64,000 nt of DNA from Escherichia coli (GCF_045037415.1 NZ_CP173438.1); one strand, 5' to 3'. Positions 24,862 to 27,889 are shown, numbered from the stretch's first letter. Notes: generated from the letters alone by a model not told the origin. Translations and numbers: made by a program.

Positions 24862-25068
24862 TCATCTCCTTTTTTTCAGTCTGTCGGCAACAATGTCGGT
24901 TGCAGCTGGCAGGGTGACTGGCCAGAACAACATGACGGCGGTCATGTACAGGATGTAATGCGCGGTGTCGTAGTGCCTGCCATAGCCCAGGGAACGATGA
25001 AGTCTTGCGCTGCATGATCCTGCGTACATATACCAGAAAAGAAAACAGACAATGGTTTCAGTAGTCAT
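24862..25068 (-). CDS. Small hydrophobic protein (about 68 aa)
   Basis: ORF 24862..25224; likely start at internal Met (MTTETIVCFLFWYMYAG...); predicted TM helices; start uncertain. Confidence 0.3.
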   Translation of the reverse strand: MTTETIVCFLFWYMYAGSCSARLHRSLGYGRHYDTAHYILYMTAVMLFWPVTLPAATDIVADRLKKRR

Positions 25069-25288
25069 TCTGAATACCTCCCCATTCGATATGAATATTA
25101 CGGGCAGCAATGACAGGGTCGTTATTCCACCATGCACCTGACATGTATTTTTCAACCTGTTCGCGTCCGGCAATAACACCAATTGTGATCCCCGGCCTGA
25201 CGTTCTTAAAAAAGGCGCGGGCAAAAAGGTATCTGGCAGATATTCGGCAGGCTTTTAATTTCCGGCTTTTACCTGATAGCGTAATCAT
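25058..25288 (-). CDS. Hypothetical phage protein (76 aa)
   Basis: Tightly packed in early operon; no recognisable motif. Confidence 0.3.
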   Translation of the reverse strand: MITLSGKSRKLKACRISARYLFARAFFKNVRPGITIGVIAGREQVEKYMSGAWWNNDPVIAARNIHIEWGGIQNDY

Positions 25289-26004
25289 CTGGCCTCCAGT
25301 TTCTGTTGTTCCTGCCCACTGACCGGGCGGTGCAGTCTGACGTTCTGCCCTTCACGAAACCCCGCATAGCGCGAGGCGTCGCCATTGCGGCTTCTTCCCG
25401 GTTTACGCGCCCTGGTGGTTTGCGTCTGCGGGTATTTATGTTCCAGCCACTGCTGCATCAGTTCACGCTCATCATCGGTCAGGGCAAAGGACTGTATTTC
25501 ACTGATAACGGCCAGCACCCAGCCTTCGGCAAACTGGTCTCCACGGCTGGTGCGGGTGGCGGTTTTTATTCTTTTGTTCTGTGCACTGATATACTGCTGA
25601 CGCGCCTTTTTCAGCTGACGGGCCAGCACTTCCCAGGTGTATGCAGCCAGTGCCGCACGTTCCCGGTTGCCGTAGAACCCCACAGACGGATGCGTGCCGG
25701 GGTGAATGATGGAGTTAACACCAAATACCTCGCGGATGATGTTCATCAGGCCCAGCATGTAGCGCGGTGGACGGAGACTGCCTGTCGGCCAGTAGTGACT
25801 GATGGTTTCATCAATATCACTCATAGCAATGTCGGAATGTGTGATGCCGTGAACATCCATCAGTTTACGGGCTCGGCGCAGTGCCAGAGCGGCCTCGTGC
25901 GGGTTGCCGGATGCGGCCAGCGCCAGCAACTTTTTCAGTTTCTCAATGTGTTTATTCTGGTCTGTCATTGTTCTGTATCTCCGGTATTTTTCTGCCGTTT
26001 CCAT
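25285..26004 (-). CDS. DUF2786-like hypothetical protein
   Basis: 239 aa; N-terminal IEKLKKLLALAASGNPHEAALALRRARKLMDVHGI signature recalled for DUF2786. Confidence 0.4.
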   Translation of the reverse strand: METAEKYRRYRTMTDQNKHIEKLKKLLALAASGNPHEAALALRRARKLMDVHGITHSDIAMSDIDETISHYWPTGSLRPPRYMLGLMNIIREVFGVNSIIHPGTHPSVGFYGNRERAALAAYTWEVLARQLKKARQQYISAQNKRIKTATRTSRGDQFAEGWVLAVISEIQSFALTDDERELMQQWLEHKYPQTQTTRARKPGRSRNGDASRYAGFREGQNVRLHRPVSGQEQQKLEAR

Positions 26005-26180
26005 GCCCGGACAGCGTCGGACAGCTCTTTCAGGCTGTATGCTGCTTTAAGCTTTTCCCATAACCACTGTGTTGTTATGTGCATCAGCAGGGCAGCCAGG
26101 GCTGCCCCCGCACTGAGGCATGTCGCCAGGCCAGTAAGAATCAGTGTCCATGCGGTGATTTCCCTGAGTATGTCAGCCAT
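25965..26180 (-). CDS. Small membrane protein (71 aa)
   Basis: One or two predicted TM helices (WTLILTGLATCLSAGAALAALLM). Confidence 0.35.
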   Translation of the reverse strand: MADILREITAWTLILTGLATCLSAGAALAALLMHITTQWLWEKLKAAYSLKELSDAVRAWKRQKNTGDTEQ

Positions 26181-26194
26181 TGAATGCCTCCCGG

Positions 26195-26491
26195 TTACTC
26201 GTTCGTGTAAATCACGCCCAGTCGTGCAGCCAGACGTTCCAGTTTTTTCTGTTTGTGGAAGTCAATCAGCCGGTCCATCCCCTGAAGGCGCAGTTGCTCT
26301 GTCATGATTTCCACGTCTGCCAGCTCTGCCGCGAGGTCACTTTCGCTGCCCTGTCCGTTCAGGTTGCGGGCGGCACTGGCCGCCAGTTCAGCGGCCTCTT
26401 CTGCCAGTTTCAGGGCCTGTGCGTCCGGCCCGAAACGCTGCAGGGCCAGACGGTAGAGGGCGGTGCGGGTGAGTTCGGTGTTTCGTGTCAT
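26195..26491 (-). CDS. MazG-like all-alpha NTP pyrophosphohydrolase (putative)
   Basis: 98 aa; acidic motifs LKLAEEAAELAASAAR and DLAAELADVEIMTEQL resemble the EExxE...DxxELxD signature of the MazG/HisE-like family. Confidence 0.45.
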   Translation of the reverse strand: MTRNTELTRTALYRLALQRFGPDAQALKLAEEAAELAASAARNLNGQGSESDLAAELADVEIMTEQLRLQGMDRLIDFHKQKKLERLAARLGVIYTNE

Positions 26492-26500
26492 GCCGCGCCC

Positions 26501-26773
26501 TCAGTGCTTCCGGCTGACGGTGATGTGCAGGCCGCCTTCTGCAGTGGTTTCCATCCGGTACGGCACCTCATGCTCTGCCGTGTGGGTGAGTGTGTTCATC
26601 AGTACCTGCAGGGCAGCCTCCTTTCCGTTGGTCGCCACAATGGCCTGTGTGGCCATGCTGATTAGCGCCGTCAGGACGTGCTTCACATCGGTGAGGTCGC
26701 GGCATTCACACTCGTTGACATAGTGTTCAACAAGGGTTCGGGTGCGCTGTCGTGCTTCCTGTGGGGTAATCAT
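26501..26773 (-). CDS. Hypothetical phage protein (90 aa)
   Basis: Start/stop coupled to neighbours (ATGA-type overlaps). Confidence 0.35.
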   Translation of the reverse strand: MITPQEARQRTRTLVEHYVNECECRDLTDVKHVLTALISMATQAIVATNGKEAALQVLMNTLTHTAEHEVPYRMETTAEGGLHITVSRKH

Positions 26774-26964
26774 TGCGAGTCCTCCCTGTCAGGGCGGGAG
26801 AATTCCATGACGGGCACGTCTGCCGAAAAATGCTGGCTGCAGTACGGGCAGACCAGGGTGACGCGTACCGCAGGGATGTGGTATTTACCGGACATCACGG
26901 CGATGGCGCTGTGAAAACGCAGGGCTGTTATATCCCTCTCGCACTGAATACATTTAAATATCAT
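26770..26964 (-). CDS. Small zinc-ribbon protein (64 aa)
   Basis: CxxC (CIQC) and CxxC (CPYC) pairs 35 residues apart. Confidence 0.4.
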   Translation of the reverse strand: MIFKCIQCERDITALRFHSAIAVMSGKYHIPAVRVTLVCPYCSQHFSADVPVMEFSRPDREDSQ

Positions 26965-27061
26965 GATTTAATTCTCCTCTGTTTCCGGCGTGCAGAAGCC
27001 CGCGGCGCTGACGTCGGAATAAAAAAGAAAATGTTTTTATTAAATAATTAACGTGGTGTGT

Positions 27062-27592
27062 TTACTGCACATCCTGCTCAAAAGGAATTATTGAAAAATC
27101 CTCAATGTCGCTTTTAATGGAAATACCGGGAATATTTTTCACGGCCTCTTTTTCATTCAGGATAGCGTCTTTATTTATTTCCTCTTTTACACGAATAAAG
27201 CGCTCAAGCCCCAGACGTCTCAGTAATTCAATAACATTATCCGCCCCACGGATACTGACTGATGGCGGACGGTTTCGCCACTGCACCTCGCCGGTGGTGA
27301 GGTTAGCGAACTTCACCTTCCCGTTGCCGGTCAGTTCATCACGGTGTGCCTCACACCATGTCTGAATACCGGACTGCAGTTCGGCCATGCGTTTTTTCAG
27401 GCTCTCGGTGAGCGGGGCATAACGTGCGGTGATATCGCCAATGGCGTCATTCATTTCTGTTTCAGCCCTGACCAGTTCACGTTGTGCGTCACCGAGTAGT
27501 CTGATTCCCTCAATGACCTCTTCACGTGTCCCCGGCACCCAGAGTGCTGCTGCGGCCTTGATACGTTTTGCACCTTTTGTACTTTTTGCCAT
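27062..27592 (-). CDS. gam: Host-nuclease inhibitor Gam (Mu Gam-like)
   Basis: 176 aa; strong similarity to recalled Mu Gam over its length (ETEMNDAI..., WCEA.RDELT..GKVK.ANL.TG.V.WR.RPPSVSIRG, DFSIIPFEQ). Confidence 0.75.
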   Translation of the reverse strand: MAKSTKGAKRIKAAAALWVPGTREEVIEGIRLLGDAQRELVRAETEMNDAIGDITARYAPLTESLKKRMAELQSGIQTWCEAHRDELTGNGKVKFANLTTGEVQWRNRPPSVSIRGADNVIELLRRLGLERFIRVKEEINKDAILNEKEAVKNIPGISIKSDIEDFSIIPFEQDVQ

Positions 27593-27619
27593 TTTTTATG
27601 ATTTCTCCAGTTGTGCTGA

Positions 27620-27889
27620 TTACCACAAAGATTCCGGCCACACGACGCGACAGCCGTGCAGTTCGAAAACGCCCTGACGGAAATATCCCCTGTGGTCATG
27701 TCCGGTATACAGATAACAGGCCTTTCCCTGCTCAAGCATGCGCATGCAATGCGCACTCCGGGAAACGCGGATGACAGGTTTGTTACCCCTGATGGTGATG
27801 CTTTGTACATCCGTGTTCGTCGCCTTAAGCGCCATAATGGCTGACTGCACTTTGCTGATTTGCTGGTTGATACCTGTGGTGGATTTCAT
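27620..27889 (-). CDS. Hypothetical early protein in the Kil position (89 aa)
   Basis: Between MuB-like gene and gam; Cys/His-rich; no confident family. Confidence 0.35.
   Translation of the reverse strand: MKSTTGINQQISKVQSAIMALKATNTDVQSITIRGNKPVIRVSRSAHCMRMLEQGKACYLYTGHDHRGYFRQGVFELHGCRVVWPESLW

Follow-up and report, generated by a model that had tools for sequence, protein, structure and literature searches.

Nine small genes between a transposition ATPase gene and gemA/mor in a BcepMu-type prophage of Escherichia coli: a probable counterpart of the Mu semi-essential region

What is the nature of the tightly packed small open reading frames (ORFs) that lie between a transposition ATPase gene and the gemA and mor genes of an Escherichia coli prophage, and what could they contribute to the phage? 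We addressed this question in a stretch of 64,000 nucleotides (nt) of E. coli DNA (GCF_045037415.1, NZ_CP173438.1)—hereafter the window, with positions counted from its first letter. Nine minus-strand genes, all co-directional and encoding proteins of 64-227 amino acids (aa), fill positions 24862-27889. We consider it very likely (a probability of roughly 0.85) that these nine ORFs make up the accessory middle part of an early operon that runs leftward in a Bcepmuvirus prophage, and that they are the counterpart of the semi-essential region of phage Mu. The genes, the single non-coding stretch among them and the flanking features of the early region are as follows, with isoelectric points given as pI.

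32699..32727, minus strand: candidate early promoter, TTGATA-17-AATAAT, sigma-70-like, agreeing with the consensus at 10 of 12 positions and the best site in a scan of the early region
27892..29058, minus strand: ExeA-family AAA+ transposition protein ('B'), annotated 'ExeA family protein'; phmmer 3.9e-145 against BcepMu gp08
27620..27889, minus strand: p89, 89 aa, pI 9.9, HI_1482 / PHROG 2041 family, E 3e-36
27062..27592, minus strand: Gam, 176 aa; Pfam Phage_Mu_Gam 9.9e-41, PHROG 491 5.5e-73, phmmer 1e-65 against Mu Gam
26965..27061, minus strand: gam-p64 spacer, 97 nt, the only non-coding stretch, with an AT/U-rich tract, a GC hairpin, GAAACAG and the p64 Shine-Dalgarno motif
26770..26964, minus strand: p64, 64 aa, predicted CxxC...CPxC zinc-ribbon protein, PHROG 3401, 1.6e-40
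26501..26773, minus strand: p90, 90 aa, PHROG 3691, 4e-56
26195..26491, minus strand: p98, 98 aa, predicted single-domain MazG-type (all-alpha) protein, PHROG 2245 'nucleoside triphosphate pyrophosphohydrolase', 5.5e-34
25965..26180, minus strand: p71, 71 aa, PHROG 3958, 1e-41; one predicted N-terminal transmembrane helix at residues ~8-37
25285..25968, minus strand: p227, 227 aa, pI 10.1, DUF2786 helical hairpin plus DUF7168 alpha/beta domain
25058..25288, minus strand: p76, 76 aa, pI 10.2, basic, PHROG 3681, 6.5e-55
24862..25068, minus strand: p68, 68 aa, PHROG 6436, 2e-45; overlaps p76 by 11 nt
24411-24860, minus strand: gemA; Pfam GemA 8.3e-41, phmmer 4.9e-34 against BcepMu gp02
24050-24439, minus strand: mor; phmmer 1.7e-44 against BcepMu gp01 and 7.8e-13 against Mu Mor

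The Prokaryotic Genome Annotation Pipeline (PGAP) of RefSeq annotates exactly the same nine genes in an identical copy of the prophage, and all nine proteins match PHROG families, with E values from ~5.5e-34 (p98) to 5e-77. An earlier note on this DNA had proposed a cluster of about nine packed, mostly overlapping ORFs of 64-239 aa with uncertain start sites. The count is exactly nine by both PGAP and PHROGs; the lower size limit stands, and the upper one shrinks to 227 aa, since the 239-aa and 120-aa versions are over-extended relative to the N-termini of homologues. The genes are indeed packed, with an annotated coding fraction of 95.1% in 24862-27889, but overlaps occur at only 4 of the 10 junctions from B to gemA (+2, +27, +97, -4, +9, +14, -4, -4, -11 and +1 nt, in this order). 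When the count starts at the B-like gene and goes on as far as mor, 10 of 11 junctions show an overlap or a gap of ≤27 nt, and three junctions (p64/p90, p71/p227 and p227/p76) are ATGA overlaps. A Shine-Dalgarno motif of the GGAG/GAGG type precedes each start by 5-13 nt—with the exception of p89, which has a weak GGGG. The start sites are largely settled by these motifs, the coupling overlaps and the N-termini of homologues; the 68-aa start of p68, for instance, agrees with a 70-aa homologue in phage KP12.

On the sense strand, ORFs of 60 aa or longer account for 96% of the sequence, versus 49 ± 13% (maximum 89%) after dinucleotide shuffling (1000 replicates). With 86% of the antisense strand open as well, ORF cover alone cannot fix the strand; what fixes strand and frames is the comparison with homologues, together with a surplus of third-position substitutions and the ratio of nonsynonymous to synonymous substitution rates (dN/dS). 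For the latter two measures, the cluster was compared with E. coli variants and with phages KP12 and Phi06_2974B. The dN/dS values fall below 0.35 for Gam (0.02-0.04), p64 (0.03-0.24), p227 (0.07-0.12), p98 (0.12-0.33) and p89 (~0.2-0.3), and p76 reaches 0.16 against KP12-type alleles. Pooled substitutions concentrate at the third codon position in eight of the nine ORFs, p90 being the exception; at codon positions 1/2/3 they number 22/1/72 in p64, 16/19/51 in p76 and 6/8/19 in p68. Moreover, diverged homologues keep the frame, at 33-100% identity for p64, 71-100% for p76, 32-100% for p68 (including two allele groups ~40% identical) and down to 67% for p71. These comparisons indicate that purifying selection acts on most of the nine genes, and we regard all nine ORFs as genuine protein-coding genes.

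The position of the cluster was assessed from its flanks. The hallmarks of an early operon are present on one strand—a DDE (rve-type) transposase followed by the ExeA-type AAA+ protein, with gemA and mor, the final genes of the early operon, at the left end. The candidate early promoter sits upstream of a ner-like gene, between divergent helix-turn-helix genes of which the opposite one is the repressor, and from this site to mor the same-strand genes run unbroken for 8.7 kb. Within the nine-gene cluster, no site stood out in a promoter and terminator scan, and an Rfam search of 23800-33500 returned no match at E ≤1. The cluster thus lies, as the earlier note had it, downstream of the transposase and between a transposition-ATPase gene and gemA/mor. 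The 'MuB-like' label given to that ATPase gene holds for its position and not for Mu proper: the protein is an ExeA-family ATPase of the BcepMu type, has no phmmer match to Mu B, and is best described as the predicted functional counterpart of Mu B.

In Mu, the semi-essential region (kil, gp6-gp9, gam, gp11-gp15, gemA, mor) occupies the same place, with the transposition genes on one side and gemA/mor on the other. The two elements have homologous Gam, GemA and Mor proteins, the order B-kil...gam...gemA-mor is matched, and a hairpin spacer after gam is a further shared trait; the likeness may extend to a Kil-like gene first after B and to a small predicted zinc-ribbon protein weakly resembling gp6. 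With Gam inside the cluster and the gene orders of both Mu and BcepMu matched, the equivalence to the Mu semi-essential region claimed earlier is upheld. The two systems differ in their transposases, which belong to different DDE types, in the ExeA-type ATPase that stands here in the place of B, and in the rank of Gam, second instead of sixth; for the MazG-like protein, the DUF2786/DUF7168 protein, p90, p76, p71 and p68, no counterpart could be detected in Mu, and Mu gp7-gp9 and gp11-gp15 likewise have none in this cluster. The Burkholderia phage BcepMu (gp01-gp09) displays the same operon layout and orientation, with the order gp08-gp07...gp02-gp01 matched and with homologues of Mor, GemA, the transposase and B (~59% identity by tblastn). 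In position, gp03-gp07 of BcepMu are equivalent to the cluster. Its gp06 pyrophosphatase occupies the same slot, and gp07, directly after B, weakly matches PHROG 2041, the family of p89 (E 0.008). However, BcepMu carries a DUF3164 protein (gp05), HU (gp04) and gp03 (DUF2528-like) in place of Gam, p64, p90, p71, p227, p76 and p68.

To describe how the slot between B and gemA varies, we gathered relatives from three sources: 80 loci from IMG/VR, with the B-like protein as anchor; 19 loci from genomes, with Gam as anchor; and records of phages and E. coli. Among these, 85 loci carried B and GemA on one strand and yielded 79 distinct between-gene sequences, which serve as the denominator for occupancy:

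Present in most of the 79 slots: p89 in 74, p98 in 64, p227 in 57, p64 in 56, p68 in 55
Present in fewer than half: p76 in 36, Gam in 36, p90 in 34, p71 in 20

The 79 slots fall into 48 architectures and contain 52 protein families, including DUF3164, DUF2528 and PF04447. Where B is 93-94% and Mor 90-95% identical, the slot proteins are only 40-75% identical. Variants lacking p71 arose through a 221-bp deletion between short repeats (TACAC / ATAC; window 25965-26197), which joins the MazG-like ORF to the final six codons of p71 (TGDTEQ*), and an otherwise unrelated KP12-type protein of 128-159 aa has the C-terminal tail of p227 (...QPV.(G/E)QEQ.KL). Because of this deletion fusion and the shared p227 tail, exchange of cassettes at conserved gene junctions is suggested. 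Across these relatives, the slot is a hot spot of cassette exchange, in which genes are swapped, lost or replaced while the flanking core stays conserved—the behavior expected of a non-essential, host-interaction region.

The gene that opens the cluster, p89, starts 2 nt past the stop codon of B, and of 72 occurrences of the gene, 61 come directly behind B and the other 11 one ORF further on. PGAP calls one allele of the family 'HI_1482 family protein'. A small basic protein in the 70-110 aa range right after B is what would be expected of Kil, and expression of Mu kil renders E. coli cells spherical (PMC3961180). Although no significant direct pairwise match links p89 with Mu Kil, both share the motif L-x-G-C-x-(I/V)-(I/V)-W near the C-terminus. 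When 15 members of the p89 family were compared with 38,880 PHROGs, two Kil families drew the most members after their own: family 6381 was matched by 9 of the 15 (best E 0.002), and family 2743, to which Mu Kil itself belongs, by 5. In hhalign comparisons with Mu Kil, shallow alignments gave a probability of 17% (P 0.0015); a deeper profile of 60 sequences, to which ~50 cluster representatives from a search of 1.84 billion proteins had been added, aligned with the Mu Kil family at a probability of 70% (P 4e-5) over 66 columns, i.e., all of Kil. We therefore describe p89 as a putative remote homologue of Mu Kil. The top match of the large search, a 4,728-aa protein, was discarded as an artefact of 41 summed 3.8-bit repeat matches. 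An AlphaFold2 model of p89 (predicted local distance difference test score 90.6) adopts an alpha-beta-beta-alpha-beta3 topology; a Pol-beta-type nucleotidyltransferase was rejected, the acidic residues of the catalytic GS...DxD motif being missing.

The second gene encodes the most securely assigned protein of the cluster. Gam matches PF07352 at 139.6 bits (gathering cut-off 28.3) over profile positions 1-148 of 149, and its prediction as a Mu Gam-type, DNA-end-binding inhibitor of host nucleases is firm. Across the relatives, Gam (36 of 79) and a DUF3164 protein (41 of 79; Pfam 3e-80) share the position after the p89 homologue and never occur together, with neither present in two slots. The two showed no sequence homology by hhalign (P 0.18). 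The shared position, the lack of co-occurrence and the absence of sequence homology suggest that DUF3164 is a non-homologous functional replacement of Gam. We found no functional study of DUF3164, DUF2786 or DUF7168 in the literature.

Immediately after gam lies the 97-nt spacer, which is conserved in 11 distinct versions; its core retains ~90% identity even in comparisons where Gam falls to 78% and p64 to 56%. RNAalifold predicts 25 pairs, four of which show double-sided changes, and the fold z-scores are only about -2. Searches detected no Rfam, promoter-like or terminator-like site in the spacer itself; an intrinsic terminator was ruled out for the hairpin, as the U-run precedes the stem instead of trailing it. 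Mu has a 98-nt spacer between gam and gp11 (Mu locus 6326-6423), in which a hairpin is followed by UGAAACAGA—the same design in the same place, with a different stem sequence. This element may act as a translational-control or RNA-processing site.

The remaining slot proteins could be assigned to differing degrees. In p64, the four cysteines of C5-x2-C8 and C39-P-x-C42 are invariant in 25 distinct sequences, so that the zinc ribbon announced by the earlier note holds as a prediction; its family profile aligns with Mu gp6 at an hhalign probability of 61% (P 8e-5), a weak apparent resemblance. The GenBank record of phage PhiKM lacks p64 and annotates a plus-strand ORF (26830-27051) instead; we preferred p64 on account of its invariant cysteines and third-position excess. 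The protein p98 has three further, weaker matches to PHROGs of the nucleoside triphosphate pyrophosphohydrolase/MazG type, a PGAP name of nucleoside triphosphate pyrophosphohydrolase and an NCBIfam score of just 14.6 bits. Each residue of its motif E31-E32-x2-E35...E56-x2-D59-x-E61 is kept in at least 80% of 26 distinct sequences, among which E31, E61 and E65 are invariant, and we classify p98 as a predicted MazG-type nucleoside triphosphate pyrophosphohydrolase with a conserved catalytic motif. Some relatives carry in the slot, sometimes beside the MazG-like gene, a 163-aa protein with a dATP/dGTP pyrophosphohydrolase domain (PF04447, 5e-44); enzymes predicted to hydrolyse nucleotides thus recur in this region. 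There is a precedent for such a protein among accessory phage genes: Atd1, a phage MazG-like enzyme, depletes (p)ppGpp and counters TIR-driven abortive infection (bioRxiv 10.1101/2022.06.09.495361). Atd1 is a short, single-domain MazG-type enzyme encoded among accessory and anti-defence genes; p98 resembles it at the level of the superfamily and has kept the acidic catalytic motif.

The largest product, p227, contains DUF2786 (43.0 bits, cut-off 23.9; residues 8-44) and DUF7168 (90.4 bits, cut-off 25.5; residues 46-189), and it is a candidate nucleic-acid-associated protein. A KH domain was considered for its core and rejected, the beta-alpha-alpha-beta-beta-alpha fold with a GXXG loop not being found. 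DUF2786/DUF7168 proteins 34-40% identical to p227 also occur on 283 PLSDB plasmid records, 227 of them conjugative and 211 from Acinetobacter; at one plasmid locus (NZ_CP056253.1), the DUF2786 gene lies within a ParA-DnaB-ParB-DUF2786-DUF2857 maintenance backbone. With these families in p227, the remote Kil likeness of p89 and the weak gp6 likeness of p64, the former statement that no protein beyond Gam and the MazG-like one is assignable does not stand. As for the membrane proteins also foreseen, we required a hydrophobic segment of ~19 residues or longer above a Kyte-Doolittle value of 1.6. The 19-residue maximum of p71 is 1.98, a clear prediction of a small membrane protein with one transmembrane helix; p68 is borderline, with conserved hydrophobic segments at residues ~5-20 and 38-57 and a maximum of 1.52 (1.65 in the KP12 allele), and is probably a two-pass membrane protein. 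The fastest-evolving gene of the cluster is p90 (42-100% identity among relatives), which has no Pfam, NCBIfam or PDB match; in searches of Pfam, NCBIfam, PADLOC and PDB, p90 and p76 match nothing beyond their own PHROGs. For the ORFs as a whole, no credible match was obtained in NCBIfam, and sequence searches of the PDB, run with individual proteins as well as with a profile of 39 p227 sequences, turned up no credible homologue.

Starting from the genes, families, synteny and mosaicism observed, we infer co-transcription, timing and biochemical roles along the following lines. Upon induction or infection, one early transcript would start near 32.7 kb and carry, in order, the ner-like regulator, the DDE transposase, the ExeA-type ATPase, the nine genes, gemA and mor. 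ATGA and other short overlaps would couple translation, and because of this coupling the nine proteins would be made together with A and B soon after induction. Their most likely joint task would be to condition the host for replicative transposition. In this scheme, the Kil-like p89 would act on the cell envelope or on morphogenesis; Gam would bind linear DNA ends and block RecBCD-type nucleases; and p98 would hydrolyse nucleotides, either for house-cleaning of deoxynucleoside triphosphates or for (p)ppGpp depletion, with Atd1 as the precedent. The basic p227 would be associated with DNA or RNA, and p71 and p68 would be small inner-membrane proteins. The host-takeover and anti-defence role that the earlier note assigned to this place is a reasonable inference, since the cluster includes Gam together with a Kil-like and a MazG-like gene, and the slot is mosaic and evolves fast.

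Several observations weigh against this account. The Kil homology of p89 is remote, resting on an hhalign probability of 70% and on weak PHROG matches (E 0.002-0.1), and a BFVD fold search with the p89 model returned no named Kil, its sole significant match being an unnamed Myoviridae protein. The p98 score against Pfam PRA-PH (15.5 bits) lies under the 21.3-bit cut-off. In p90, a dN/dS of 0.37-0.51 is accompanied by codon-position substitutions of 82/50/88, i.e., no third-position excess; p71 and p68 offer few informative substitutions; and the dN/dS of p76 rises to ~0.8-1.2 in very close pairs, which have only 6-8 differing sites. The early promoter is called by consensus match only, and promoter- and terminator-like sites occur at background frequency. 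Finally, PADLOC defence-system models found no credible match in any ORF (best E 0.026 at 10 bits).

The same body of evidence bears on three other explanations. That several of the small ORFs (e.g., p71, p76 and p68) are chance frames in a GC-rich spacer, or that true genes lie on the plus strand, could draw on the open antisense strand, the plus-strand ORF of the PhiKM record and the dN/dS near 1 of p76 in its closest comparisons; yet the diverged homologues that keep the frame, the third-position excess in p64, p76 and p68, the Shine-Dalgarno motifs and coupling overlaps found for each, and the agreement of PGAP and PHROGs make this explanation highly improbable. Some ORFs, chiefly p71 and p68, might alternatively be lysogenic-conversion or superinfection-exclusion genes expressed from the repressed prophage, and not early lytic genes. 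Small membrane proteins commonly mediate exclusion, p71 is a presence/absence cassette, and the prophage is widespread among clinical E. coli. Both genes, however, lie mid-operon and share an ATGA or another short overlap with a neighbor, the scan detected no promoter-like site inside the cluster, and their orientation and spacing favor expression only with the early transcript, which leaves us with little expectation that they serve such a purpose.

A dedicated anti-defence island, in which p90, p76, p64, p227, p71 and p68 would mostly be inhibitors of host immunity instead of general takeover or replication helpers, deserves closer attention. Gam as a predicted RecBCD inhibitor, the precedent for a MazG-like anti-defence enzyme, a second nucleotide hydrolase (PF04447) in the same slot of relatives, the rapid evolution of p90 (dN/dS 0.4-0.5), and a slot that is hypervariable (52 families, with presence/absence polymorphism) between conserved flanks would all fit. 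On the other hand, in the libraries searched, none of them dedicated to anti-defence, the ORFs gave no match to a characterised anti-defence protein; Kil-like proteins and membrane proteins belong to the classical repertoire of host takeover; and hypervariability is typical of non-essential phage early genes generally. In addition, p227 is strongly conserved (dN/dS ~0.1) and also found in the ParA-DnaB-ParB backbones of conjugative elements, for which DNA handling fits better. On balance we consider such an island unlikely, and retain the accessory early-operon segment, equivalent to the Mu semi-essential region, as the explanation of the locus. Beyond it, we offer a tentative proposal, to which we give somewhat less than even odds: at least one unassigned cassette-like ORF (candidates being p90, p76, p64 and p227) might be a host-takeover or anti-defence effector of an uncharacterised family, and DUF3164 might replace Gam without homology, protecting DNA ends or inhibiting nucleases.

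The element that harbors the cluster was delimited as follows.

23887..60931, no strand assigned: whole prophage, 37,045 bp, flanked on both sides by TTCTTC, a target duplication of 6 bp

Its left end at 23887 (TGATTAGACTTGAGATAAATG...) was set by aligning copies from four different chromosomal sites; the right end at 60931 and the TTCTTC duplication were read directly from the sequence. Five insertion contexts were seen in all, the copies of other strains lying at dpiA, at ybaV, at an adhesin gene and within a DUF2300 gene. The prophage is an intact BcepMu-type element (Bcepmuvirus), and it was inserted by transposition, as follows from the varied chromosomal sites and the 6-bp duplication. 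Window 24000-28000 is 100% identical to Escherichia phage PhiKM (GenBank PQ738613.1, Bcepmuvirus), which originates from a uropathogenic strain; the equivalent E. coli prophages have the same nine genes in RefSeq annotation, and nothing substantive differs. A match to window 24000-28000 was found in 639 of 5,426 complete E. coli genomes (~12%), with at least 80% of it covered in 614, and many clinical E. coli strains carry the prophage. BcepMu-like prophages are routinely reported from uropathogenic E. coli (PMC10955171), and induction of bacteria isolated from the human gut has yielded Bcepmuvirus prophages (PMC12629997).

The chromosomal context up to ~23.9 kb reads lpxK-msbA-ycaI-ihfB-rpsA-cmk-ycaL on the minus strand, and the insertion point falls in ycaL codons 2-3 (window 23881-23906 and 60932-60940). 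The ATG and promoter of ycaL are displaced by 37 kb to the right junction (60938-60940), and the gene body (23124-23886) abuts the left end of the phage; PGAP nonetheless calls a 260-aa YcaL with a start inside the phage end. The PhiKM record holds a host ycaL fragment named 'Fe2+ ABC transporter permease protein 2' and labels mor 'protein C'; host flank was apparently included when it was assembled. Near the right end, a Gin/Hin-type invertase gene (60152-60853, plus strand) adjoins two inverted, alternative C-terminal cassettes of a tail fibre (59309-59770 and 59781-60209, minus strand), in which the 3' portion of the tail-fibre gene (57351-58688) recurs; as a unit, these elements (59309-60853) look like a host-range switch of the Mu G-segment type. 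Beyond the prophage, aroA (61109-62393, minus strand) is broken into ORFs of 353 aa and 110 aa by an extra A (GTTAAAGAGAACCGATCGC) at ~61369-61371. Over aroA 61330-61420, no identical sequence exists among 5,425 complete E. coli genomes, each best match being 98.9% with a 1-base indel; the extra base reflects either an error of sequencing or a frameshift private to this genome, which would make it an aroA null.

The region is an ordinary one, of a known kind in a known phage, and the identical sequence is already present in GenBank, RefSeq and PHROGs; its novelty is low for this reason. The analysis contributes improved gene starts, assigns p227, p89 and p64 to families, and quantifies the mosaicism of the slot. 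Three leads can be tested directly—the putative remote link of p89 to Kil, the mutual exclusivity of Gam and DUF3164, and the conserved hairpin spacer after gam. In practical terms, the outcome is a list of nine early genes found in ~12% of complete E. coli genomes, with a solid function for Gam only. Since Mu-like slots hold host-killing (Kil), nuclease-inhibiting (Gam) and nucleotide-manipulating genes, the unassigned cassettes would be reasonable candidates for screens of counter-defence and host-shutoff proteins.

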